A stretch of 64,000 nt of DNA from a bacterium (GTDB lineage: Bacteria; Patescibacteriota; Microgenomatia; UBA8517): positions 593,902 to 657,901 of the forward strand of contig CP129472.1 in NCBI GenBank assembly GCA_030583725.1, read 5' to 3'. Under the pieces are notes generated by a model. The model saw only the letters and a program-made list of their open reading frames with translations. It ran no database searches and was not told where the DNA came from. Each line of letters opens with the position of its first letter. The stretch's first letter is position 1. The position numbers were made by a program, and so were the translations under genes. Shown piece by piece: positions 17,925 to 34,178 of the stretch.

Positions 17925-20240
17925 TTAGTTACTTTTAAGTGGGTATCTAATAGTTGCAGAAGAACTGGAAATGGGGCACTCAAGACAGTAGATTGCTCCT
18001 GTTGGGTCTGTGTAAACTGTTTTTGACTGCATCTCTATTTGCTCAGGAAGAGCATCAGAGTTTGCAACTTGACCAGTATCTCTAAATACCCACAAATCTT
18101 GGTGGGTTACGTTTACTGTTGTGGGGATGGTCCCTGCCAAAAAATACTCAAATCTGGATGGACAGCCTGGATTATTTGGGTCACCTGACAATATGGCTCC
18201 ACCAGTATCAGAACAGATTGTTCCTCCGACGACTTCCTCTGGTTGTAATGGCCATGAGTGACCATCACTATCAGAGTCATATGCACCCTTCTCACTTTTA
18301 TCAAGGGCAAATTTTATTACACGGTTCCATATTGGTGATGCTCCAGTAACTCCAGAAACAGCACCACCCATTGGAGTGTTGTCATTATTACCTACCCACA
18401 CAACCACAACTATTTGTTTTGTGTATCCAATTGTCCAATTATCTCTTCTGTCATTTGTTGTACCTGTTTTTACAGAAACTTCTGGATGACCCCTGACATT
18501 TAAAAAACTAGATGGGCCAAAAGCCTCTTGTCTGGCGTTGTTGTCATGCAGGGCGTGCGAAATTAAAAATGAAGTTCCTGTATCTAATACTTTTTCACCT
18601 GATAATTTTTTGTTACCAATGTTAACCTCTTCTAAAATTTTGCCTTTCCAGTCTTCAATTTTGGTAATTGCTAGTAATGGTTCTTTGACCCCTCCATTTG
18701 CAAAAACACCAAAAGCTACGGCCATATCAATAGGCTTAACTTCTCCTCCTCCTAGTGTCAGCGATAGCCCGTATCTGTCTGGATCTTCAAAAGTAGTGAG
18801 ACCAAGAGAATTTGCAAATTCTACAAACTGTTTTACACCATTTACAGCCAATATTTTAACAGCAGGAATATTTAAAGAGTTTCCCAAGGCAAACCTTGTT
18901 TGAACAAGACCTTTAAAGGTTCCATCATAGTTTTTAGGGCAGTAAAGTGATTGTCCAGCAACTGCAAAACAAGATGGTGTGTCAGCAAAAGTTGTTGCTA
19001 GTGTTATTTTTTTGCGCGAGATTGCCAGAGCGTAGTTAAGGGGTTTAATTGACGAACCAGGTTGACGATTGGCCAATGTAACGTTGACTTTACCGTCCTC
19101 GTCTTCGGCAAAATAGTCTTTACTTCCTACCATCGCAAGTATTTCTCCAGTCGATGGGTGGGTAACGATTGCAGCTCCATTTCCCACCTTCTGGTTTTTA
19201 AGTTTTGCGACTTCTGTGGCAACCGCCATTTGAGCAAATTCCTGAAGTTCTAAATCTAAAGTGGTGGTAACTCTAAGTCCACCTTGTTCAACCATTCTTT
19301 CACCATACTTTTCAACCAGTTGTTCTTTCACCCAAAGGGCAAAATGGGGAGCTTTGGGAGCTTCAATTTTTGTGTACTTTAATTCTTCTTCAAAGGCCTT
19401 GTCAGCTTCTTCTTGGGTAATGTGTTCATTTATAACCATTTGATCAAGCACTTGTTTTTGTCGTTCTTTGGCAAGTTCAGGTCTTGCTCCAAAAGGTGAA
19501 TATCTTGTAGGGCTTTGAGGCAAACCTGCAAGTAAAGCAGATTCTGCAAGGCTTAAATCTTTGGCTGGTTTTTTAAAATATAGTTCACTTGCTGACTCAA
19601 TTCCATAGGCGGTCGATCCATATGGAATTTGGTTTAAATACATTTCAAGTATTTGGTTTTTTGAATATATTCCCTCAACCACCATTGTCAAGAAAAACTC
19701 CCTTGCCTTTCTCCGAATAGTTCTTTCAGGAGAGAGTAGTGCGTTTTTAACAAGTTGTTGGGTTAGTGTTGATCCTCCTTCAAGTTTTCCTCTGGTTACA
19801 ATTTTCCAAGCAGCCCTAGCAATTCCAGTAAAAGAAAAACCGTAATGTTTGTAAAAATCTTTGTCTTCAATTGCAATGGTTGCATTCTTAATATTGTCAG
19901 GTAGGGACTCGAGCTCAATAGGGCTTCTTCTGGTATCTGCATATATTTCATAAATTATATTGCCGTTTCTATCAAATAGTTTGGTTGAGACAGGAATGTC
20001 TGGTGATGTTAGTTTAGTAGGAAGGGGTATTCCCCAAAAAAGCCACAAAGAAAAAGAAATTAGAACGGTAAAAAAAATAACTCTTTTTCTATTATATTTA
20101 CTAGATAGGTGTTTTTTGATTTTTGAGAAAAAATGTCGCATACTTGATTTTAATGGATATTGGTTTAGAAAACAAAGTTTGGTGGACATATATAGAAAAA
20201 GACCTTCAGGAATTGTTGGTTGCTTCTGAGTTTTTGGCAA
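17925..20240 (-). CDS. class A penicillin-binding protein (second PBP1A paralog)
   Basis: IEDKDFYKHYGFS, GGSTLTQQL and KTGT motifs. Arranged in tandem with the previous PBP. Confidence 0.85.
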   Translation of the reverse strand: MPKTQKQPTIPEGLFLYMSTKLCFLNQYPLKSSMRHFFSKIKKHLSSKYNRKRVIFFTVLISFSLWLFWGIPLPTKLTSPDIPVSTKLFDRNGNIIYEIYADTRRSPIELESLPDNIKNATIAIEDKDFYKHYGFSFTGIARAAWKIVTRGKLEGGSTLTQQLVKNALLSPERTIRRKAREFFLTMVVEGIYSKNQILEMYLNQIPYGSTAYGIESASELYFKKPAKDLSLAESALLAGLPQSPTRYSPFGARPELAKERQKQVLDQMVINEHITQEEADKAFEEELKYTKIEAPKAPHFALWVKEQLVEKYGERMVEQGGLRVTTTLDLELQEFAQMAVATEVAKLKNQKVGNGAAIVTHPSTGEILAMVGSKDYFAEDEDGKVNVTLANRQPGSSIKPLNYALAISRKKITLATTFADTPSCFAVAGQSLYCPKNYDGTFKGLVQTRFALGNSLNIPAVKILAVNGVKQFVEFANSLGLTTFEDPDRYGLSLTLGGGEVKPIDMAVAFGVFANGGVKEPLLAITKIEDWKGKILEEVNIGNKKLSGEKVLDTGTSFLISHALHDNNARQEAFGPSSFLNVRGHPEVSVKTGTTNDRRDNWTIGYTKQIVVVVWVGNNDNTPMGGAVSGVTGASPIWNRVIKFALDKSEKGAYDSDSDGHSWPLQPEEVVGGTICSDTGGAILSGDPNNPGCPSRFEYFLAGTIPTTVNVTHQDLWVFRDTGQVANSDALPEQIEMQSKTVYTDPTGAIYCLECPISSSSATIRYPLKSN

Positions 20241-20266
20241 ATGTAGTGAGGAGTTGGGGAGGAGAT

Positions 20267-20662
20267 ATGCCTCAGGGTAGGAAAGTTTTTAGTGATTATT
20301 CATTCGTGGTTTTTCCTGCAGCAAAAGCATATGAAGGTTTTTTGAAAAAAGTATTTCTAGATATGGAGTTTATTACCAGTGAAGATTATCATGGTAAACG
20401 ATTTAGGATTGGAAAAGCACTAAATCCATATTTAGATAAAAGGTACAGAGAAAAGGAGAGTGTCTATGACAAACTAGTTAAATACTGTGGCGGTAAGGAG
20501 CTAGCAGATGACTTGTGGAACACTTGGACTTTATGTAGAAATACTGTTTTTCATTGGTTTCCAGATGAAAAAAAGGCAATCACTTTTGACGAAGCCAAAA
20601 CCAAAATAGATATGGTTATTGGCTCTATGGATAAAGCCTTTGAGGGTTGTAAACTTAAATAG
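20267..20662 (+). CDS. small protein with C-terminal RNxxxH (HEPN-like) motif
   Basis: The internal start at 20267 has a strong GGAGG RBS and avoids overlapping the PBP start. The motif is LCRNTVFHW. Confidence 0.35.
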   Translation: MPQGRKVFSDYSFVVFPAAKAYEGFLKKVFLDMEFITSEDYHGKRFRIGKALNPYLDKRYREKESVYDKLVKYCGGKELADDLWNTWTLCRNTVFHWFPDEKKAITFDEAKTKIDMVIGSMDKAFEGCKLK

Positions 20663-20673
20663 CAATATTAATT

Positions 20674-21321
20674 ATGAGCAAGACTTTAAATTTCAAAAGG
20701 GCAGTTTATCTGGCAGCGTACCTACTAATAGTATGGGGTTTTTATAGATTTCTTTTTCAACTTCCAGAAGAGATTGAGGAAACAATAATTAAACCACTGG
20801 TTTGGCTAATCCCAGTTATTTATTTAGTTAAACTAGAACGTCGTGGTTTGGAATCTGTTGGTATAACTTTCAAAAATTTGTTTCCTGCAATTTATTATTC
20901 CTTGGGATTGGGCCTGATCTTTGTTTTAGAGGCAATGTTTGTTAATTACATCAAATACGATGGGCAACTTAATCTGAATGCAAATATTGGTCAATTACCG
21001 TTTATAACAGCGCTTGGATTATCTTTTGTAACTGCTTTTTCAGAAGAGATCACATTCAGGGGATACATATTTACTAGAATCTGGGACTTTATCAAAAATG
21101 AGTTCACTGCCAATATCCTAACATCTGTTTTTTGGGCTATGATTCATGTACCCATAACCATATTTGTTTGGAAATTGGATTTTTCAGCAAGTCTAATATA
21201 TTTAGCACTAACCACCATTTTTGGTATTGGAAGCGCTTTTGTATATGCTAGAACTAAAAACATTTTGGCACCAATTATTCTTCATGTATTATGGCAGTGG
21301 CCAATAATTTTGTTTAGATAA
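20674..21321 (+). CDS. CPBP family intramembrane metalloprotease (CAAX protease / Abi domain)
   Basis: EEITFRGY (EExxxR), FWAMIH and HVLWQ motifs in a multi-TM protein. Confidence 0.75.
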   Translation: MSKTLNFKRAVYLAAYLLIVWGFYRFLFQLPEEIEETIIKPLVWLIPVIYLVKLERRGLESVGITFKNLFPAIYYSLGLGLIFVLEAMFVNYIKYDGQLNLNANIGQLPFITALGLSFVTAFSEEITFRGYIFTRIWDFIKNEFTANILTSVFWAMIHVPITIFVWKLDFSASLIYLALTTIFGIGSAFVYARTKNILAPIILHVLWQWPIILFR

Positions 21322-21400
21322 GGAGACATAAGTGACATTGTTTGCAGGAGTTGACTGCTTAGTATACAATTACAATTACCCAATTAGTTTTGGGTAATTT

Positions 21401-22009
21401 ATGAAAAGCAATGTTGCAGTTAATATCATTACAATAATTGTTGCTTTCACCATACTTTCGGCTTCATTTTTCAAAACAGTTAGTATTAAATATGCCTATA
21501 CGCCACTGGTTTTATCAGAGAATACTGAACAAAAAAATACAGAAGATGATCTTTCGGTAGATTATGTATTGGCCTACCCTGGAAAAATTAATCCCGACAA
21601 TCCACTTTGGTACCTAAAGGCCTTAAGAGATAGAATTTGGGTTGTTACAACTTTTGATCAAAACAAAAAAAGTGATCTATATTTATTGTTTGCCGACAAA
21701 CGTTTGGTTTCTGCAACAATGTTATTTCAAGACAATAAACCCGATTTGGGTCTTGTCACACTAACTAAGGCTGAAAAATATCTTGAAAAGGCATCAAAAA
21801 CAGTATCTTATACTGATAGTTATGAAAAGTTGGCGCTTGCTTCACTGAAGCACAGAGAGATAATCGAAAGACAAATACTACCTTTAACCCCAGAAGACCT
21901 AAGGCCTCAAGCTATAAAAACAATTGACTACTCAAAGGAAGTATATAAAGTAATGAGTGTTAATTTATTGACGATTGGCTTGAATCCACCGCAAAATCCA
22001 TTTGAATAG
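21401..22009 (+). CDS. hypothetical exported protein
   Basis: N-terminal signal/TM segment. No family recognised. Confidence 0.35.
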   Translation: MKSNVAVNIITIIVAFTILSASFFKTVSIKYAYTPLVLSENTEQKNTEDDLSVDYVLAYPGKINPDNPLWYLKALRDRIWVVTTFDQNKKSDLYLLFADKRLVSATMLFQDNKPDLGLVTLTKAEKYLEKASKTVSYTDSYEKLALASLKHREIIERQILPLTPEDLRPQAIKTIDYSKEVYKVMSVNLLTIGLNPPQNPFE

Positions 22010-22197
22010 TATCCTTTTTTTATACTCGATTTTAAAATAATCTCCGCAAAATTTACGCGAGCAAAAATGAAAGAAATTTTTTTGAAGCTACTCAGGCTTA
22101 AAGGTGATATATTTAATACTAAAAGTTTATAGTTGACTCTCTACCCCTAGTGTTAGATCATCTGTCTTGTTACTAGTGATAGTGTTTTTTGCTTTCA

Positions 22198-22250
22198 TAT
22201 GTGAAACATAGTTATTTTATGTGAAACATAGTTACTACTTGTGAAACGCA
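22198..22250 (+). promoter_or_regulatory. three direct repeats of TGTGAAAC(ATAGTTA) with 20-bp period upstream of nrdR
   Basis: TATGTGAAACATAGTTA at 22198-22214 and 22218-22234, then CTTGTGAAACGCA at 22238-22250. Candidate operator of the nrdR-nrdJ operon. Confidence 0.5.
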
Positions 22251-22280
22251 AAAAATTGTAACTAAAAGAAAAAAGTACAT

Positions 22281-22727
22281 ATGAAATGTCCATTTTGTAA
22301 TACCAAGGAGACACAAGTTCTTGAGTCAAGAACGAGCGACGATGGTCACGGATTAAGAAGGAGAAGGGAGTGTACCAAGTGTGGTAAAAGGTTTACAACA
22401 CATGAGTCAGTTAAAACATCTGTACTCTGGGTTATTAAAAGAGATGGCAAAAGAGAGCCTTTTGATAAAGAGAAAGTAAAAAGAGGAATATTAAGATCAA
22501 TCGAAAAAAGACCAGTTTCTTTAGATTTGGTTAATGAAATAGCAGATGAGATAGAGAGGGAAATGCTAAAAGCAGAGAATGAAGAAATATCAAGCAAGTT
22601 AATAGGTGGTGCAATTTTAAAAAAGTTAAAGAAAGTTGACAAGGTAGCTTGGTTAAGGTTTGCAAGTGTCTATTTACAGTTTGAAGACTTAGAAGATTTT
22701 GAAAAAATAATATCTAAAAATATATGA
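22281..22727 (+). CDS. nrdR: transcriptional repressor NrdR
   Basis: Zinc ribbon CPFC...CTKC followed by an ATP-cone. The N-terminus MKCPFCNTKETQVLESR is canonical. Confidence 0.9.
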   Translation: MKCPFCNTKETQVLESRTSDDGHGLRRRRECTKCGKRFTTHESVKTSVLWVIKRDGKREPFDKEKVKRGILRSIEKRPVSLDLVNEIADEIEREMLKAENEEISSKLIGGAILKKLKKVDKVAWLRFASVYLQFEDLEDFEKIISKNI

Positions 22728-25204
22728 CAAAAAAACAAATTAAAAATAAATTATTAAAATTTGAAGATTACAAAGCTCCTACCTATGAAAAAATACGAAA
22801 GGAAATTGATAAGAAAGTTGGTTTAAAACCAAACCTGCCACAGGACTTGCCCAAGGGTGATTGGACAGAACAGGCATTAAAGGTTTTGGGTGAAAGATAT
22901 CTTGTTAAAGATAATAACTTAAATCCAATTGAATCCCCAGAAGATATGATTTGGCGTGTTGCTTGGGATGTTGCCTCTAGTGAAGCCAGGTGGGGTGCAA
23001 CTAAAAAAGATGTGATGAAGTCTGCAAGAGAGTTCTACAATTTAATGGTTTCAAGAAAATTTTTACCAAATTCTCCAACCCTTATGAATGCCGGTACTGG
23101 CAATGGTTTGCAATATTCTGCCTGTTTTGTCCTTCCTGTTGAGGATTCGATGGAAGGAATATTTGATGCTCTAAAACATCAGGCCATAATTCACAAAACA
23201 GGTGGTGGTACTGGGTTTTCATTTACTAGACTTAGACCATCTGGATCGTTAGTCAAAACTTCATCTGGTACTGCATCTGGGCCAATATCGTTTATGAGAA
23301 TATTCGATGCCGCTACTAACGAGGTTAAACAAGGTGGAAAAAGAAGAGGTGCAAATATGGGAATTTTAAGGGTTGACCATCCAGATGTTATGGAATTTAT
23401 CCATTGCAAAGAAGAGGGGGGTATTACAAATTTCAACATATCAGTGGCGATTACAGACAAGTTTATGGAGGCTTATAGAAATAACGAGGACTATGAGCTT
23501 ATAAATCCAAAAACAAAAGAGGTTGTTGGAAAACTATCAGCCAGAGTTGTTTTTGATGAGATTGCTGACGGTGCTTGGAGGACAGGAGACCCTGGATTAA
23601 TTTTTATAGACAAGATAAACCAAAGTACTGCAAACCCTGTTCCAACAATTGGAGATATTGAAGCAACCAACCCCTGTGGAGAACAACCTCTTTATCCTTT
23701 TGATGCTTGTAACTTGGGCAGTATATTTTTAACTTACTTTGTAAAAAATGGTGAGGTAGACTGGGATGGAATAAAAGAGATATCAAGACAAGCAGTTAGA
23801 TTTTTGGACAACGTCATTGAAGTTAATCCGTATCCACTAGAGCAGATAAGGAATACAGTTTTTGGTATCAGAAGAATTGGACTAGGAATTGGAGGTTGGG
23901 CCGATATGCTTCTTGAGCTTGGAATTCCTTATGACAGTGAAGAAGCCTTAACTCTTGCAGAGCGTGTTATGAAAACAATTAACGATGAGGCAGTTTCTGA
24001 GACAGAAAGACTTGCTAAAGTAAGAGGAGCCTTCCCAATGTTTGAGGGGTCAATTTATAAAGGGACAACTCCCAGAAGAAATTCAACAGTCACTACAATT
24101 GCACCTACTGGTACGATATCAATAATTGCAGGTAGTTCTTCAGGTTGTGAACCGCTTTTTGCAATTGCTTTTCAACATATAGTTAAAGATAAGCATTTGG
24201 ATAGAAAGTTAACTTTTGTTAATCCAAAATTTGAAGAAGTTCTTAAAAAAGAAGGTATTTGGAGTCAGGAGTTGATGGACAAAGTCGGAGCGAAAGGTGT
24301 TGTCAGAAATATTCAAGAAATTCCAGAAAAAATAAGAAATATTTTTGGTACGGCCCAAGAAATTACCCCTACTTGGCACATAAGGACACAAGCAGTTTTT
24401 CAAAAACATACAGAGAATGCAGTGAGTAAGACTATTAATTTAGACAATTCCGCGACAGTTGCAGACATTAAAAATGCCTATCTTGAGGCTTGGGATACAG
24501 GGTGTAGGGGTATAACTGTCTTTAGGGATGGATGCAAAGATGTTCAGGTTTTAAACTTGGGTACAAAAAACGATACTGTAAAGACTGATGTAAACACAAA
24601 CACCCAACAGGAGGTTGAGCCAATAAGACAACGTCCTTATAAAGTAACTGGTTCAACGTACAGGATGCATACTCCAGTGGGGACAGCATTTATAACAATT
24701 AATGAAGATGAGAACGGTGACCCATTAGAAGTCTTTGTGAACGTTGGCAAAGCTGGTTCTGATGTTGCTGCTATGGCAGAAGCCTTAGGTCGTACTATTT
24801 CAACCGCCTTAAAATTTAGAGGAAATGTTTCTGCAAAAGAAAAAGCAAGAGAATTTGCAGACCAACTTTCAGGAATTGGTGGAAGAAGGTCAATTGGATT
24901 TGGTCCAACAAAAATAAAATCTCTTCCAGATGCAGTAGCTGGTGCGTTATCTGTTCATTATGATTTTGGTATAAATGGATACCACAACAGCCCAAATGTT
25001 TTTGGCGTAAATGACTCAAAAAAAGAACCAGTAAGTGAAGTAATTGCATCAATTCCATCAACCACAAAAGAACAACAAGACACTTTGTTTCTTCATGCTA
25101 CAAAAGAAAAAGTTGGTGATATCTGTCCAAGTTGTGGAGCAGGAGCATTAGTTTTTGAAGAAGGGTGTAGTAAATGCCACGCCTGTGGACATAGTGAATG
25201 CTAA
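22724..25204 (+). CDS. nrdJ: adenosylcobalamin-dependent ribonucleotide reductase (class II)
   Basis: 826 aa with class II RNR core motifs (NPCGEQPL, catalytic Cys region) and a C-terminal zinc ribbon CPSCG...CSKCHACG. Translationally coupled to nrdR. Confidence 0.9.
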   Translation: MTKKQIKNKLLKFEDYKAPTYEKIRKEIDKKVGLKPNLPQDLPKGDWTEQALKVLGERYLVKDNNLNPIESPEDMIWRVAWDVASSEARWGATKKDVMKSAREFYNLMVSRKFLPNSPTLMNAGTGNGLQYSACFVLPVEDSMEGIFDALKHQAIIHKTGGGTGFSFTRLRPSGSLVKTSSGTASGPISFMRIFDAATNEVKQGGKRRGANMGILRVDHPDVMEFIHCKEEGGITNFNISVAITDKFMEAYRNNEDYELINPKTKEVVGKLSARVVFDEIADGAWRTGDPGLIFIDKINQSTANPVPTIGDIEATNPCGEQPLYPFDACNLGSIFLTYFVKNGEVDWDGIKEISRQAVRFLDNVIEVNPYPLEQIRNTVFGIRRIGLGIGGWADMLLELGIPYDSEEALTLAERVMKTINDEAVSETERLAKVRGAFPMFEGSIYKGTTPRRNSTVTTIAPTGTISIIAGSSSGCEPLFAIAFQHIVKDKHLDRKLTFVNPKFEEVLKKEGIWSQELMDKVGAKGVVRNIQEIPEKIRNIFGTAQEITPTWHIRTQAVFQKHTENAVSKTINLDNSATVADIKNAYLEAWDTGCRGITVFRDGCKDVQVLNLGTKNDTVKTDVNTNTQQEVEPIRQRPYKVTGSTYRMHTPVGTAFITINEDENGDPLEVFVNVGKAGSDVAAMAEALGRTISTALKFRGNVSAKEKAREFADQLSGIGGRRSIGFGPTKIKSLPDAVAGALSVHYDFGINGYHNSPNVFGVNDSKKEPVSEVIASIPSTTKEQQDTLFLHATKEKVGDICPSCGAGALVFEEGCSKCHACGHSEC

Positions 25205-25761: not shown

Positions 25762-26097
25762 ATGGGACTACTGCCTGAAAGAGAACCAATAAAGAATAAG
25801 TATGAGAATCCTGATGAAGCTTCGCCTTTAAACATAGAAAGGAAAGAGGTTGTAACTCCTGTTCCAACCCAATTTAAAGCTCAAGTTACAGATGATCAGG
25901 GTAATAGTGTAATTAAAACACCAGAGTCTGAAAAAGTTGACATAGTTATTCCTGCTTCTAACGAAAAAAGTCTTGAGGTTACTATCAAGGGGGATAAAAG
26001 TGAATCTTCTGTTTGGTCTGCAGGTTATTGGCTTAGAATTTTTAAAAAGGCAGTTTATTTTAGTTGGAAGATATTATTCGATGGAGGTAAACAATGA
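25762..26097 (+). CDS. hypothetical protein
   Basis: 111 aa. Overlaps the downstream ATPase gene by 4 bp, so probably in the same operon. Confidence 0.35.
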   Translation: MGLLPEREPIKNKYENPDEASPLNIERKEVVTPVPTQFKAQVTDDQGNSVIKTPESEKVDIVIPASNEKSLEVTIKGDKSESSVWSAGYWLRIFKKAVYFSWKILFDGGKQ

Positions 26098-28421
26098 TCG
26101 TATCTGATTTAAATACAATTTTTGCATTCTTGATACTAATTTTAATTTTAGTTTTCATGGTTGCTGTTTTTTCCTATGTAGCCTTTGTGGTTTTCAGATA
26201 CCGTGGTAGAGAAGAACGATCAGTTGACTCGGTTTATCTGCAAATTTCTGTACCCCGCTTGAACGAAATTAAAATTGATGCTATGGAGCAACTTTTTGCT
26301 TCACTGTATTCAGTTAAAAAAGGGGGTTGGAAACAAAAGTTTTCTGTTCAGCCTACACTTTCTTTTGAAATGTTGGCAAGAGATGAAGATATCAAGTTCT
26401 TTGTTTGGACACCTTCAGAATATAAAGATTTAGTAGAAAAACAAATCCATGGTGCATATCCTGACGCTGAAGTTAAAGAAGTACAAGAGGTTAATATTTT
26501 TTCAAACGAAGGTAAAGTAGCCTATAAGTCATTGCAACTTTCAAAAGCAAACTATTATCCTCTAAAAACATTTAAAGATTTGTCTACAGATATTTTGTCT
26601 GCAGTTACATCTAGTATGGCTAGGATGGATAAAGGTGAGGGTGCAATTTTACAAATTTTAATTTCTCCAGCTGAATCTGACTGGCAAAAAGAGGGAGGAA
26701 AGTTTATTTCAGATACTAAAAAACAAGAAAGCAGTTCAGAAAGTGCTAAATATTCTGTATCTGCAAAAGCTCTTGAAGCCGTGGAAAACAAGATCAGTAA
26801 ACCTGGTTTTGAAACATCAATCAGGATTATAGTTTCAGGAACTACAAAAGAGAGGGCAAAAATCCATCTGGACAACATTAATTCTTCAATCAGCCAAGTT
26901 GCAGGTGAACACAACATCTTGGGTGGTAGAAAAATATATAACAAAGGCTCATTTATGCAGGACTTTTTATATCGCTATCAGCCGATGTTTAATATTTTAA
27001 AAAACCATGTATCAATTTTAAATTCTGAAGAGCTTGCAACAATTTTTCATTTTCCAAATAGACAAATAACAACCCCACATATTCACTGGTTGCATAGTAA
27101 GACAGCCCCTGCACCCGCAGAAGTGCCTGAGGATGGCTTGTATTTAGGTAAGAGCGTCTATAGAGGGGTAGAACGAAAAATTGCAATGGGCGATGATGAT
27201 AGAAGAAGGCACATGTTTATTATTGGTGCAACGGGTACAGGAAAAACCGAGCTTTTAAAGAGCATGATTATGCAGGATATAAATGCTGGACGTGGAATTT
27301 GTTTTATGGATCCACATGGTGATGCTGTTGAAGATGTTTTAAAAATGATTCCCCCAGAACGTGCAGAAGATGTTGTCTACTTTAGACCTTCTGACACAGA
27401 GCGTCCAATGGGGTTAAATTTGATGGAAGCCAAAACTGAAGACGAAAAGCATTTTGTTGCCTCATCAATTATTAATATGATGTACAAACTTTTTGACCCT
27501 TATAAGACTGGTATTGTTGGTCCAAGGTTTGAGCATGCTGTAAGAAATGCCATGTTAACCATAATGTCGGAGCCCGGAACCACCTTTGTTGAATTGATGA
27601 GGGTTTTGACAGACGCAAGATATGTTCAGGAATTACTACCTAAGGTAACTGACCCTATAATCAGAAGATATTGGACGGATCAGATTGCACAAACTTCTGA
27701 CTTCCATAAATCTGAGGTTTTAGACTATATCACCTCAAAATTTGGTAGGTTTGTAACAAATAAAATGATTAGAAATATCATTGGGCAATCTCAGTCGTCA
27801 TTTTCATTCCGTGATGTAATGGATAATGGAAAGATATTATTAATTAACCTAGCAAAAGGTGAGTTGGGTGAGGAAAACTCAAACTTTTTAGGTCTTATTT
27901 TAGTACCTCGTATTTTAATGGCAGCCATGAGCAGAAGTGATACACCAGAAGAACAACGAAGAGATTTTTATCTTTATGTTGACGAGTTCCAAAATTTTGC
28001 AACACCTGACTTTGCTGTTATTCTTTCTGAGGCTAGAAAATACAAACTGAATTTGACCGTTGCTAATCAGTTTATAGGTCAGATGGAAGAAGAAGTTAAA
28101 AATGCAGTTTTTGGAAACGTAGGTACAAAAATATCATTTAGGGTTGGTGTGACAGATGCTAATTATTTACAACATGAATTTTCTCCTACGTTTGGCGAGG
28201 ATGATTTGTTAAATGTTGAAAGATTTCACGCATATGTTAAAACAATTGTCAGAAACCAACCACAAACACCATTCTCCCTTGATACAACACTTGATATGAA
28301 AGCGGTAAATGCCACAAAAAATGATAGAACTGCAGAAATAATTACTGAAATGAGTAGGTTAAAACATGGTAGAGACGTAAAATTAGTTGAGGCAGAAATC
28401 ACTAGACGAGCAAAGCTTTAG
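26094..28421 (+). CDS. membrane-anchored FtsK/HerA/TraD-superfamily P-loop ATPase
   Basis: N-terminal TM helix. Walker A GATGTGKTE, Walker B YVDEFQNF, then an FtsK-like ARKYKLNLTVANQ segment. Confidence 0.6.
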   Translation: MIVSDLNTIFAFLILILILVFMVAVFSYVAFVVFRYRGREERSVDSVYLQISVPRLNEIKIDAMEQLFASLYSVKKGGWKQKFSVQPTLSFEMLARDEDIKFFVWTPSEYKDLVEKQIHGAYPDAEVKEVQEVNIFSNEGKVAYKSLQLSKANYYPLKTFKDLSTDILSAVTSSMARMDKGEGAILQILISPAESDWQKEGGKFISDTKKQESSSESAKYSVSAKALEAVENKISKPGFETSIRIIVSGTTKERAKIHLDNINSSISQVAGEHNILGGRKIYNKGSFMQDFLYRYQPMFNILKNHVSILNSEELATIFHFPNRQITTPHIHWLHSKTAPAPAEVPEDGLYLGKSVYRGVERKIAMGDDDRRRHMFIIGATGTGKTELLKSMIMQDINAGRGICFMDPHGDAVEDVLKMIPPERAEDVVYFRPSDTERPMGLNLMEAKTEDEKHFVASSIINMMYKLFDPYKTGIVGPRFEHAVRNAMLTIMSEPGTTFVELMRVLTDARYVQELLPKVTDPIIRRYWTDQIAQTSDFHKSEVLDYITSKFGRFVTNKMIRNIIGQSQSSFSFRDVMDNGKILLINLAKGELGEENSNFLGLILVPRILMAAMSRSDTPEEQRRDFYLYVDEFQNFATPDFAVILSEARKYKLNLTVANQFIGQMEEEVKNAVFGNVGTKISFRVGVTDANYLQHEFSPTFGEDDLLNVERFHAYVKTIVRNQPQTPFSLDTTLDMKAVNATKNDRTAEIITEMSRLKHGRDVKLVEAEITRRAKL

Positions 28422-29335: not shown

Positions 29336-29530
29336 GGCCCGGTAACTCAGTGGTCAGAGTACCGTCCTTATGGTAGAAAATTTGGGCGCATAGCTCAGTG
29401 GTTAGAGCATCGATCTTATAAGTCGAGGGTCCTTGGTTCAAATCCAAGTGCGCCCACCAAATTTTCAGACAGACAGCGTACAAACACAGTCATAAGACGG
29501 GAGTCGATGGTTCGAGCCCATCCCGGGCCA
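29336..29530 (+). tRNA. tRNA gene interrupted in the anticodon loop by a 122-bp insert (exons 29336-29372 and 29495-29530)
   Basis: Perfect 7-bp acceptor stem GGCCCGG/CCGGGCC, D-arm ACTC/GAGT, anticodon stem CCGTC/GACGG, T-arm GATGG-TTCGAGC-CCATC. The anticodon is TAT if the insert lies at 37/38, or CAT if at 32/33. Confidence 0.6.
29384..29459 (+). tRNA. tRNA with TAT anticodon (Ile-UAU-like), CCA encoded, lying inside the insert of the outer tRNA
   Basis: Acceptor GGGCGCA/TGCGCCC, D-arm GCTC-AGTGGTTA-GAGC, anticodon stem TCGAT/GTCGA with loop CTTATAA, T-arm CTTGG-TTCAAAT-CCAAG. Confidence 0.8.
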
Positions 29531-32051: not shown

Positions 32052-32125
32052 GTGCCAGCGACTGGATTCGAACCAGTGACCTGTCGCTTATGAAACGACC
32101 GCTACTAACCACTGAGCTACGCTGG
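32052..32125 (-). tRNA. tRNA with CAT anticodon (Met or Ile2)
   Basis: Reverse complement reads GCCAGCG-TA-GCTCAGTGGTTAGTAGC-G-GTCGT-TTCATAA-GCGAC-AGGTC-ACTGG-TTCGAAT-CCAGT-CGCTGGC-A. CCA is not encoded. Confidence 0.8.
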
Positions 32126-32372
32126 CCTGAAGTTGTATTGTACCAAAATTTGAGTCAGTATTCAGCTTTGTGTTACAATAGCTTTGTTCTTGAAATTTAA
32201 AAAATAATTTCATATGTGCGGGGTAGTGTACAGTGCACGCGAGGCTTGAGAAATTGGGCCACATTAAAAGAAATTTTAAATGTGAAACTTGGCTATATCG
32301 GGGAACGCCTAAAAATTTAGGTCAATCCCGAGGGAAGTTGAAATAACCCCCTAGAGACTACACGCCGAGCCC

Positions 32373-34178
32373 TCAGAGATGAGGTGAAGATATAGTCCGA
32401 CACTCTAAGTAATTAGAGATTACAGATCGCATAATCTCGCAGGCTGGGCGCAACTCCCAGCCCCGCAACAAGAAGGGAATTGAGGAAAACTTTTCCTCCA
32501 AAAGAGCCTGATTTTCGGGCTCTTTTTTGGGTTCAACCGCCTTTGCGATGATAGGTGCTATTTTTTTCATCTCCTTAATCTTAATGAGATACTTTGGGGC
32601 GTCAAATTGGACTTTTCTATCGTGCAAAGTTAGGTGCAACCCTAAACCTGTAAAAATATCCCGTTTAATTTTTAGGTCATCTCCTGCAAATCTTTCTTTG
32701 GCTCTTGAGGCAAATGTAAAGGCCTTCTCAGTTTGGTCGTTGGCCTGAATCATCCTACCGTCTGTGTCTACCAACTGCTTTTCAAGCCCCTTTAGTTCAA
32801 TTTCAAGCTTCGTTTTCTTGTTTTTATATTCTTCATCACTTAATACCTCTCCGTTTTTATTCATTGGCGATATTTTTAAATGAAGAAGATTGTCCAATTG
32901 TATTCTGATATTGTCGTGCGTACTTTTAATGTTTTTAATAGTATCTTCTCTAAAATCTCTCTCTGTTGTATTTTCTTTTAAAATTTGCTTAATTGCCCAA
33001 TTCATAAAGGCTGGCGAAATATCAATATCTGTTAAAAAATCATCTATTTGTTCCTCAAGTTTTTTAAGGGTTACAGATTTCTCCCCACATTGAGGATTTT
33101 TCTTTTTTCCACACCTGTAATAGGTATAGTGAAGCATTTTAGGGTCGGCCATATTGTGAATCAAAGTCCCGCAATGGATACATTTATCCTTATTCTTCTT
33201 AGTAATTGAAAACTTTTCTTTACAATTTGAGCATATACATTGCCATTTTTCCTCTCCGACTATGGAGGAATCACAAGAGGCACAATGTACAAGGCTTCCT
33301 GTATAAGCAAATTGATGTCCTTGAAGTTTATATTGACTACGTCTACCTAGTTTAATTTGAATCTCGTTAAAGGTACTTTCTGATACCATAGCCTCATATT
33401 CTCCCTTGTACCACACACCGCTTTTGAGTGGATATTCAAACTTGCCACAGTAAAAAGGGTTTGAAAGAATACGGTAAATCATACTTATAGAAAGCGGTTT
33501 ACCACCGCTTCTTTTCTTTGGTCTTGTTCTAAAACCCCAATCGTCTTTGGCAAGCCTATGGATTTCATTTACAGGCGTACCATTTTGAAACAACTCAAAT
33601 ATCCGTTTAACTGGCTCAAACCTTTCAGAATCAACTAAGATACGCCTGTTGCCACTTTCTGTTGTCTTATCGTTCAAATAGCCTTGCGGAGCAACTCCTG
33701 GCCTGAAGCCACCTCTACATTTCTTCACGAGTCCTCTTGTAACAGCAATTGATTTGTCATCACTATCTTTTTTGGATATGCTGAATTCGAGACTGAGCAT
33801 AAACTTGTCCTCTGGTGTGTTGTGATATGCTCTGCTTGGCGTTTTTATTTCAACCAACTTATTTCTATCTATTAAATCAATTATTTTCCCACCATCAACC
33901 ATATTTCGGGCTAGTCTATTTAAGTGCCAAGTTAGAATTGCGTTAGCCTCTCCAGCCTCTAGTTTGTTAATCATCACTTCAAACAGTTCACGACCTTTTT
34001 CGTGTGCTGATTTTGATTCTTGAAGTACTTCTATAATGTTTAAATTGTACCTAGTTTTTACGCCTTCAATTATAAAAACTTGGTCATCTAGGCTTGCCAC
34101 CTGTCTGTCTCTGTTATCCTCCGAACTCTTACGGACATAGCCTATGTATTTAAGATTGCTTAGCTGATTTTCTTCCAT
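32373..34178 (-). CDS. large serine recombinase (resolvase-domain integrase)
   Basis: N-terminal YVRKSSEDNRDRQVASLDDQ resolvase catalytic motif (the Ser lies in RKSS). Large C-terminal recombinase and zinc-ribbon region with multiple CxxC. The ORF 3' end reads across the left 18-bp repeat. Confidence 0.85.
   Translation of the reverse strand: MEENQLSNLKYIGYVRKSSEDNRDRQVASLDDQVFIIEGVKTRYNLNIIEVLQESKSAHEKGRELFEVMINKLEAGEANAILTWHLNRLARNMVDGGKIIDLIDRNKLVEIKTPSRAYHNTPEDKFMLSLEFSISKKDSDDKSIAVTRGLVKKCRGGFRPGVAPQGYLNDKTTESGNRRILVDSERFEPVKRIFELFQNGTPVNEIHRLAKDDWGFRTRPKKRSGGKPLSISMIYRILSNPFYCGKFEYPLKSGVWYKGEYEAMVSESTFNEIQIKLGRRSQYKLQGHQFAYTGSLVHCASCDSSIVGEEKWQCICSNCKEKFSITKKNKDKCIHCGTLIHNMADPKMLHYTYYRCGKKKNPQCGEKSVTLKKLEEQIDDFLTDIDISPAFMNWAIKQILKENTTERDFREDTIKNIKSTHDNIRIQLDNLLHLKISPMNKNGEVLSDEEYKNKKTKLEIELKGLEKQLVDTDGRMIQANDQTEKAFTFASRAKERFAGDDLKIKRDIFTGLGLHLTLHDRKVQFDAPKYLIKIKEMKKIAPIIAKAVEPKKEPENQALLEEKFSSIPFLLRGWELRPACEIMRSVISNYLECRTISSPHL
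32452..32469. repeat. left copy of 18-bp direct repeat (putative att core)
   Basis: Exact match to 38305-38322. GC-rich in an AT-rich background. Confidence 0.7.
32503..32528 (+). terminator. rho-independent terminator
   Basis: AGAGCC-TGATTTTCG-GGCTCT followed by a TTTTTT run. Confidence 0.6.

Follow-up and report, generated by a model that had tools for sequence, protein, structure and literature searches.

A HEPN-domain protein encoded beside a CPBP intramembrane protease in a lineage of Woesebacteria and other Microgenomates

Introduction

Why is a small HEPN-like protein encoded directly upstream of an intramembrane protease, beside genes for peptidoglycan synthesis, in an ultrasmall bacterium of the candidate phyla radiation (CPR)? 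The question is raised by two genes in a 64,000-nucleotide stretch of contig CP129472.1 (assembly GCA_030583725.1, positions 593,902 to 657,901, forward strand; Patescibacteriota, Microgenomatia, UBA8517), hereafter called the window, which has a G+C content of 35%. A first-pass annotation made from the sequence had suggested that the pair serves toxin/immunity or defence instead of housekeeping. HEPN ribonucleases (RNases) are otherwise almost exclusively toxins of conflict systems (toxin–antitoxin, Abi, CRISPR) or eukaryotic membrane-linked stress RNases, and few substrates or partners have been established for bacterial CPBP proteases.

Here we describe the HEPN–CPBP locus, which is core, syntenic and vertically inherited. 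On balance, and with modest confidence, we favour a two-gene module in which a predicted RnlA/LsoA-type HEPN endoribonuclease would act on the cytoplasmic side of the membrane, where the CPBP protease would tether and/or process it, probably through a cysteine-containing tail. The two genes are:

20153..20662, plus strand: HEPN gene, 169 residues, stand-alone RnlA/LsoA type, assigned from the NCBI match P0001, homologue lengths, Pfam and an AlphaFold2 model
20674..21321, plus strand: CPBP (Rce1-like) glutamic intramembrane protease gene (PF02517), 215 residues, about seven transmembrane (TM) helices

The upstream gene encodes a 169-residue protein

The reading frame containing the sequence LCRNTVFHW is open from 20123 to a TAG stop codon at 20660–20662. 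The first-pass annotation placed the start at ATG 20267, giving a protein of 131 residues behind a strong GGAGG ribosome-binding site; neither feature holds. The true start is ATG 20153, because an identical NCBI protein (P0001, QY322_03540) has 169 residues, nearly all of the 120 best matches are 168–175 residues long, the 38 residues upstream of ATG 20267 (MDxxLExKxWWxYxExDLQELL...SWGG) are conserved in homologues, and residues 16–34 form a confident helix in the AlphaFold2 model (pLDDT 92–93). ATG 20267 is the internal Met39 codon, and the GGAGG pentamer, 5 nt before it, lies within the coding sequence:

20258..20262, plus strand: GGAGG, codons W35-G36-G37 of the HEPN gene; homologues keep W35 without exception and conserve G36/G37

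The 11-bp distance from the HEPN stop codon to the CPBP start codon at 20674 is as first described.

HEPN assignment and predicted active site

The small protein has two meaningful Pfam matches, both below threshold: HEPN_RnaseLS (PF18869; E about 1–2e-05, 25.4 bits against a cut-off of 29) and RnlA-DBD, also named RnlA-toxin_DBD (PF19034; 18.9 bits against a gathering score of 27). Both models are matched at E<0.01 by 15 of 18 diverse family members. A distant relative, P0238, which an exhaustive search connects to the window protein with a phmmer E of 1.3e-07, passes the PF19034 gathering score (35.1 versus 27 bits). The profile of the 18 members reaches LsoA (PDB 5hy3) at E 0.0035, and hhalign aligns the family with Escherichia coli K-12 RnlA at E 0.0069. 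These two alignments independently place invariant residues of the family on the four catalytic positions:

20324..20335, plus strand: K58-A-Y-E61 (AKAYEG), first half of the predicted active site, aligned with LsoA R243/E246 and RnlA R255/E258
20537..20554, plus strand: R129-N-T-V-F-H134, the Rx4H HEPN motif, aligned with LsoA R305/H310 and RnlA R318/H323

Position by position, the correspondences are as follows:

K58: LsoA R243, RnlA R255
E61: LsoA E246, RnlA E258
R129: LsoA R305, RnlA R318
H134: LsoA H310, RnlA H323

Mutagenesis of RnlA shows that R255, E258, R318 and H323 are all needed for RNase activity and toxicity (PMC8266594). Across 217 sequences from four clades (88 + 25 + 80 + 24), the only exceptions to the invariance of K58, E61, R129, N130 and H134 are one Lys-to-Arg change, in a fusion protein, and one broken gene.

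The R[NH]xxxH string from which the first-pass annotation recognized a HEPN protein is present at R129–H134, and by itself it carries no statistical weight: chance alone would yield about 0.7 occurrences in the coding sequence of the window, which contains one unrelated example. The motif gains its meaning because it is invariant in the 217 homologues and in register with the catalytic residues of RnlA and LsoA.

The AlphaFold2 model of the HEPN protein, built from a 12-sequence alignment, is all-helical (pLDDT 86.7, pTM 0.85). Its top Foldseek matches in the PDB are the HEPN structures 1ufb, 1wol and 2hsb and HepT, amid other four-helix bundles and all at E>0.1. A phmmer search of PDB sequences with the 131-residue form and a search of the NCBIfam models gave no match for this protein. 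Membership in the HEPN superfamily, and specifically in the RnlA/LsoA type, is well supported by the sequence comparisons and moderately supported by the predicted fold. The Pfam matches, profile alignments and weak fold matches are all consistent with the HEPN-like protein of the first-pass annotation, and place it in the RNase LS family.

The downstream CPBP protease

The downstream protein matches PF02517 at E 5e-18 (65.6 bits; cut-off 22.4), as expected for the CAAX/CPBP protease originally proposed. Three motifs would supply its active site, with conservation assessed over 74 orthologues:

21043..21060, plus strand: motif 1, E124-E125-I-T-F-R129; E124, E125, R129 and G130 are invariant
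21145..21147, plus strand: motif 2 histidine, H158, invariant in 74/74
21283..21297, plus strand: motif 3, H204-V-L-W-Q208, with H204 in 73/74

The EExxxR motif is exactly as annotated. The other two need correction: the proposed FxxxH is W154-x3-H158 (F153-x4-H), and the proposed HxxxN is HxxxQ/E, position 208 being Glu in 42 orthologues and Gln in 25, not Asn. From this pattern of conserved residues, the protease looks catalytically competent.

Pairing, synteny and gene fusion

In a scan of GTDB in which each species was represented by a single genome, 460 stretches matched, and the locus counts given here come from the best 80 of these. All 80 are from CPR bacteria (Woesebacteria, Microgenomates, Patescibacteria), and some records titled ‘uncultured Gammaproteobacteria’ hold the same CPR gene block. 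As mapped with tblastn and phmmer, the order of genes is PBP1a (divergent), HEPN, CPBP, DUF5667 and NrdR; in the window a ribonucleotide reductase (RNR) gene follows NrdR. The immediate neighbours of the pair are:

17925..20141, minus strand: class A penicillin-binding protein (PBP) with transglycosylase and transpeptidase domains, divergent from the HEPN gene; conserved start MRHFF... at 20141; genomic context rather than an established part of the module
21401..22009, plus strand: DUF5667 membrane-anchored protein (PF18915, 1e-09), the next gene of the syntenic block, downstream in most loci; context

Directly upstream, the opposite strand carries two class A PBP genes, in agreement with the cell-wall setting noted in the first-pass annotation. 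The divergent PBP1a–HEPN layout is seen in essentially all loci with enough flanking sequence.

CPBP is the next gene after HEPN in 71 of the 79 species loci with enough downstream sequence. The gap ranges from −5 to about 170 bp and is often ≤30 bp or an overlap. The conservation of the pairing in other genomes, which the annotation had left as a point to check, is therefore evident from these loci, and also from natural fusions. About 25 protein clusters of 381–393 residues (P0271–P0294), which share 40–64% identity, carry PF18869 and PF02517 in a single polypeptide; they come from Shapirobacteria, Microgenomates ADurb.Bin219 and metagenome contigs. The catalytic residues of both halves are invariant. 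The fused genes occupy the same site, divergent from PBP1a, despite changed genes downstream (LeuRS in L084, ClpB in L085). In a model of a fusion protein (pLDDT 83.5, pTM 0.70), the N-terminal half matches the HEPN structure 2hsb (Foldseek TM-score 0.69, probability 0.97) and the C-terminal half matches Rce1 (4cad; probability 0.98). The last HEPN helix (residues 137–158) runs almost straight into the first TM helix (TM1, residues 160–195), an arrangement in which the HEPN domain would sit where the protease opens to the cytoplasm.

The association is not universal. In eight loci (L031, L041, L043, L048, L049, L050, L052, L066) HEPN is followed directly by DUF5667, and K58, E61, R129, N130 and H134 are intact in all eight. 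Because several of these loci have nearest relatives with CPBP, the protease gene must have been lost in at least three clearly independent events, and in up to seven. At L172, CPBP is directly divergent from PBP1a and no HEPN gene is present in the 8.6 kb of sequence. In L086 and L087, a cytidylate-kinase-like gene of the Cytidylate_kin2 family separates HEPN from CPBP.

Some further features of the locus were observed. PBP1a starts at 20141 on the minus strand and HEPN at 20153 on the plus strand, leaving 11 bp between the two divergent genes (20142–20152); the gap is about 14–40 bp in several relatives and wider in others. With an 11-bp gap, each promoter must lie within the opposite coding sequence, or the mRNAs must be leaderless or overlapping. 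Across 19800–22400, promoter-like sites are no commoner than in shuffled sequence, and a terminator scan of the same interval found none on the plus strand. L063 and L066, both from the metagenome-assembled genome SMAG_U8423, are two copies of the block, one with and one without CPBP; this bin probably mixes two related strains. In L003 (7200–9245), genes for a UbiA prenyltransferase and a polyprenyl synthase are inserted directly after CPBP, a single case that is curious given the CaaX-like tail described below.

Inheritance and genomic setting

Median identity to the window copy is 57.5% for HEPN, 58.2% for CPBP, 66.3% for PBP1a and 69.2% for NrdR, and HEPN identity is rank-correlated with that of the other three (Spearman rho 0.56–0.70, p<1e-6). 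These correlated identities therefore indicate vertical descent. The neighbours in the window are housekeeping genes: an aldolase, PfkB, a 2-hydroxyacid dehydrogenase, a beta-lactamase-like protein, the two PBPs, NrdR, the class II RNR and a cobalamin adenosyltransferase.

Searches of defence and mobile-element collections were negative. PADLOC-DB 2.0 gave no match for HEPN (in its 131-residue form), CPBP or DUF5667 at E up to 1, and PHROGs gave none for the HEPN protein. No HEPN relatives were found by tblastn in 50,697 phage records and 72,556 plasmids, or in a scan of IMG/VR.

Two further clades extend the family. The sister clade comprises 80 metagenome loci (L091–L170) retrieved with a clade-specific alignment. 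Its HEPN gene follows secE-nusG-rplK-rplA, once more a conserved position on the chromosome; 35/80 loci have a Cytidylate_kin2 (PF13189) gene in divergent orientation, and 39/80 have a P-type ATPase gene downstream. No candidate antitoxin and no consistent small partner gene were found there. The Cytidylate_kin2 family recurs beside the sister-clade HEPN gene and, in L086 and L087, between HEPN and CPBP. In the third, small clade (the P0238 group), two to four N-terminal TM helices are fused to the HEPN domain; one such gene, in L089, follows SerRS.

These data bear on the proposal that the HEPN RNase is a toxin which the CPBP/Abi protein neutralizes, or triggers upon phage attack. Such a module would account for the intact HEPN active site, for the tight two-gene layout with its 11-bp gap and for the defence-like surroundings of a TM-anchored relative (L088, below); characterized relatives of the RnlA/LsoA type are anti-phage toxins, according to a survey of HEPN proteins (PMC3710099). 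The genomic record points the other way. The locus is core and syntenic, evolves like PBP1a and NrdR, and has no PADLOC matches and no relatives on the phages, plasmids and viral contigs searched. A catalytically intact HEPN protein has survived at least three independent losses of CPBP, which rules out the protease as an obligatory antidote, and the sister clade manages without CPBP and without any consistent small partner. Conversely, L172 keeps CPBP without HEPN. Neither an RnlB-type antitoxin nor the N-terminal TBP-like domains of RnlA are present. Finally, the two proteins are stably joined in one polypeptide in about 25 clusters, an arrangement not expected of a toxin/antidote pair. We consider a toxin/immunity or abortive-infection role improbable, and the first-pass proposal of a defence rather than a housekeeping module is poorly supported by the locus.

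A cysteine tail in the CPBP-linked clade

The HEPN proteins linked to PBP and CPBP contain two cysteines, C112 and C166, that do not occur in the other clades. The second lies in a short C-terminal tail:

20648..20659, plus strand: HEPN C-terminal tail C166-K-L-K; clade-specific, with the clade tail [E/G]-C-K-[I/L/M/V]-x

In this clade the final position of the pattern is typically Lys, Asn or Asp ([E/G]-C-K-[I/L/M/V]-[K/N/D]). C166 is a cysteine in 73/73 intact loci with an adjacent CPBP gene and in 25/25 fusions, where it lies just ahead of the linker to TM1. It is replaced or lost in three of the eight loci that lack CPBP (L050, L052 and L066, which are mutually unrelated), and it is also replaced in L086 and L087, where the cytidylate-kinase-like gene splits the pair. 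The equivalent residue is Leu in the rplK–rplA-linked clade (Cys in 0/80) and Phe in the TM-anchored clade (Cys in 0/24). A naive Fisher test, calculated by hand on losses of 0/73 versus 3/8, gives p of about 7e-4, with small numbers and phylogeny only roughly controlled. The commonest tail has exactly three residues after C166 (26/74 loci), and two to four residues follow it in 46/74. A strict CAAX box is ruled out by tails that vary from 2 to 13 residues and by the internal position of the cysteine in the fusions. A cysteine tail beside a homologue of the CAAX proteases nevertheless recalls eukaryotic CaaX processing and the myxosortase signals, an analogy that we regard as a lead and not a finding.

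The behaviour of C166 also bears on whether the two genes are functionally linked at all. They could be neighbours only through the synteny of the PBP–NrdR block, the fusions being tolerated accidental read-throughs. The whole block (PBP1a, HEPN, CPBP, DUF5667, NrdR) is conserved, which makes the adjacency unspecific; either gene can be missing, a cytidylate-kinase-like gene can intervene, and the sister clade occupies a different context. Against this, the fusion lineage is old and diversified, with both catalytic sets invariant in 25 clusters at 40–64% identity, and the gaps between separate genes are often ≤30 bp or overlaps. The HEPN–CPBP tie outlasts changes in the downstream genes (L084, L085). 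C166 tracks CPBP adjacency (73/73 versus 5/8) and is absent from the clades without CPBP. The absence of any functional link is, in our view, unlikely.

Proposed function of the module

We propose that the pair is an operon conserved in the Woesebacteria/Microgenomates lineage. The first gene would encode a free-standing HEPN domain, most likely an endoribonuclease that needs no metal ion and works as a dimer, with K58, E61, R129 and H134 as its active residues, and the second a CPBP (Rce1-like) intramembrane protease that appears catalytically intact. Both proteins may cooperate on the cytoplasmic side of the membrane: CPBP is predicted to have its N-terminus in the cytoplasm, and some relatives have this end covalently joined to the last helix of HEPN. 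The protease would most likely tether and/or process the RNase, and so control it, with the clade-specific cysteine tail as a probable contact or processing element. The module would serve a vertically inherited chromosomal function beside peptidoglycan synthase genes rather than being a mobile toxin–antitoxin or phage-defence cassette. Because the divergent arrangement with PBP1a is so persistent, the module may be connected with the cell envelope.

Several observations weigh against this proposal. The window HEPN protein itself reaches no curated family threshold, Foldseek returned nothing at E<0.1 for its model, and the RnlA and LsoA structures are not among the fold matches listed for either the HEPN or the fusion model. 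Adjacency by itself is weak evidence of coupling, because it comes mostly from one class in which the whole block is syntenic. With HEPN lacking CPBP in 8/79 loci and CPBP lacking HEPN at L172, neither gene strictly needs the other, and no CPBP, PBP, DUF5667 or NrdR gene was found within 5 kb in the 80 sister-clade loci. The TM-anchored gene of L088 (5866–6606) has an EcoRI-type methylase gene on one side and a GmrSD/HNH gene on the other, a defence-island-like position. The wider HEPN family may thus include defence-type members, and the module may have a defence ancestry or role.

A different division of labour would make the HEPN-like protein a non-catalytic adaptor or ligand-binding subunit, comparable to the MtlR type, that regulates or feeds the CPBP protease, perhaps in cell-wall homeostasis. 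The Firmicutes CPBP proteins SpdC and Abx1 are signalling scaffolds, which favours such a role, as do the Lys in place of Arg at the first catalytic position and the very persistent divergent linkage to PBP1a. We find it distinctly unlikely: although some HEPN families are non-catalytic, these typically lose the Rx4-6H motif, according to the same HEPN survey (PMC3710099), whereas E61, R129, N130 and H134 are invariant over four clades and three genomic contexts, the signature of a catalytic HEPN domain.

A more specific version of the tethering and processing model is a cytoplasmic ‘CaaX-like’ pathway, in which CPBP would recognize the [E/G]-C-K-[I/L]-x tail, possibly with lipid modification and clipping, and so anchor or release the RNase beside the peptidoglycan synthases. 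The cytoplasmic location of the HEPN protein and the variable length of its tail speak against it, and we regard it as a long shot. If true, it would amount to a CPR-specific, Ire1-like, envelope-coupled RNA-cleavage switch or to a membrane-bound initiator of mRNA decay.

Other features of the window

Several features elsewhere in the window are recorded here for completeness. An Rfam match to a group I intron lies at 32237–32419 on the plus strand (79 bits, gathering score 50), flanked by a tRNA-Met gene (32052–32126, minus strand) and the end of a 601-residue open reading frame (32373–34178, minus strand). A tRNA-Ile gene with a TAT anticodon is located at 29384–29459 on the plus strand; this anticodon is unusual for bacteria, in which AUA is mostly read by a modified CAT anticodon. 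The RNR gene at 22724–25204 encodes 826 residues and is free of inteins, and its orthologue in Woesebacteria GW2011_GWF1_31_35 (L001, 8482–12057) encodes 1191 residues, including an intein with a LAGLIDADG endonuclease. At 26094–28421 lies the gene for a 775-residue TrwB/TraG-like coupling ATPase (PF10412, PF12696, DUF87), which has the same neighbourhood in L003.

Comparison with known systems

The closest characterized relatives are RnlA (RNase LS) and LsoA, the toxins of E. coli type II toxin–antitoxin systems. By sequence profile, the window protein falls in the same HEPN sub-family: the DYSxxxFPxxKxYEGxLK and RNxxFH blocks of its family align with their catalytic residues, and the same metal-independent endoribonuclease activity of a HEPN dimer is predicted. 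The differences are equally clear. RnlA has 357 residues, and the 169-residue window protein consists of the HEPN domain only, preceded by a 38-residue N-terminus with a single helix and without TBP-like N-terminal domains; the first catalytic Arg of RnlA and LsoA is Lys in the window family. No RnlB/LsoB antitoxin gene is present at the window locus, where the partner is a membrane protease with seven TM helices and the upstream neighbour is a divergent PBP1a gene. RnlAB and LsoAB are prophage- or plasmid-borne, whereas the window gene is a chromosomal core gene of a CPR lineage. The portion of the HEPN survey considered here associates the RNase LS family with RNase H, TBP-like and RnlB partners and mentions no CPBP/CAAX partner (PMC3710099).

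The downstream protein is a clear member of the Rce1/CPBP family (PF02517; 4cad) that keeps EExxxR and the two His motifs. Like Rce1 substrates, the window HEPN protein ends in Cys plus three residues, with an aliphatic residue at +2. The window system differs in that tails vary from 2 to 13 residues in the family, the cysteine is internal in the fusions, and motif 3 is HxxxE/Q. We know of no prenyltransferase or lipid transferase for this HEPN–CPBP system. The CPBP ‘Abi’ proteins of bacteriocin self-immunity loci offer another comparison, and no bacteriocin genes lie near the window pair; the neighbours (PBP1a, HEPN, DUF5667, NrdR, RNR) include neither a small bacteriocin-like gene nor one for ABC export.

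The myxosortases MrtC, MrtP and MrtS are CPBP proteases that cut C-terminal sorting signals with an invariant Cys (10.1101/2023.06.07.544157; PMC11980579), and they are likewise tied to a partner with an invariant Cys near its C-terminus. The NCBIfam Mrt models give scores of 18–26 bits against cut-offs of 100–250 (e.g. 25.8 versus 100). Unlike myxosortase substrates, the window HEPN protein has no signal peptide, C-terminal TM helix or basic tail, as expected for a cytoplasmic rather than a sorted surface protein. For the mode of action, the nearest analogy may be the eukaryotic HEPN proteins of the Ire1/RNase L KEN-domain and C6orf70 types, in which a TM partner or segment keeps the HEPN RNase domain on the cytoplasmic side of a membrane (PMC3710099). 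The window system has no kinase or lumenal sensor, belongs to another HEPN sub-family, is bacterial and has a protease as its membrane partner.

A full-text literature search returned no paper that ties HEPN domains to CPBP/CAAX proteases and nothing relevant on HEPN proteins in CPR bacteria. The pair is not an RnlAB/LsoAB system, a bacteriocin-immunity CPBP, a myxosortase or any PADLOC system. Its domain assignments are ordinary, and what is new is that a HEPN–CPBP architecture, at times fused, is conserved as part of the core of a large CPR lineage. If the proposed function is correct, a HEPN RNase has become established in the core genome of this lineage, coupled or fused to a CPBP protease; the HEPN protein with its cysteine tail would be a concrete candidate substrate or partner for a bacterial CPBP protease, and CPR bacteria, about whose RNA metabolism little is understood, would gain a possible membrane-associated RNase.

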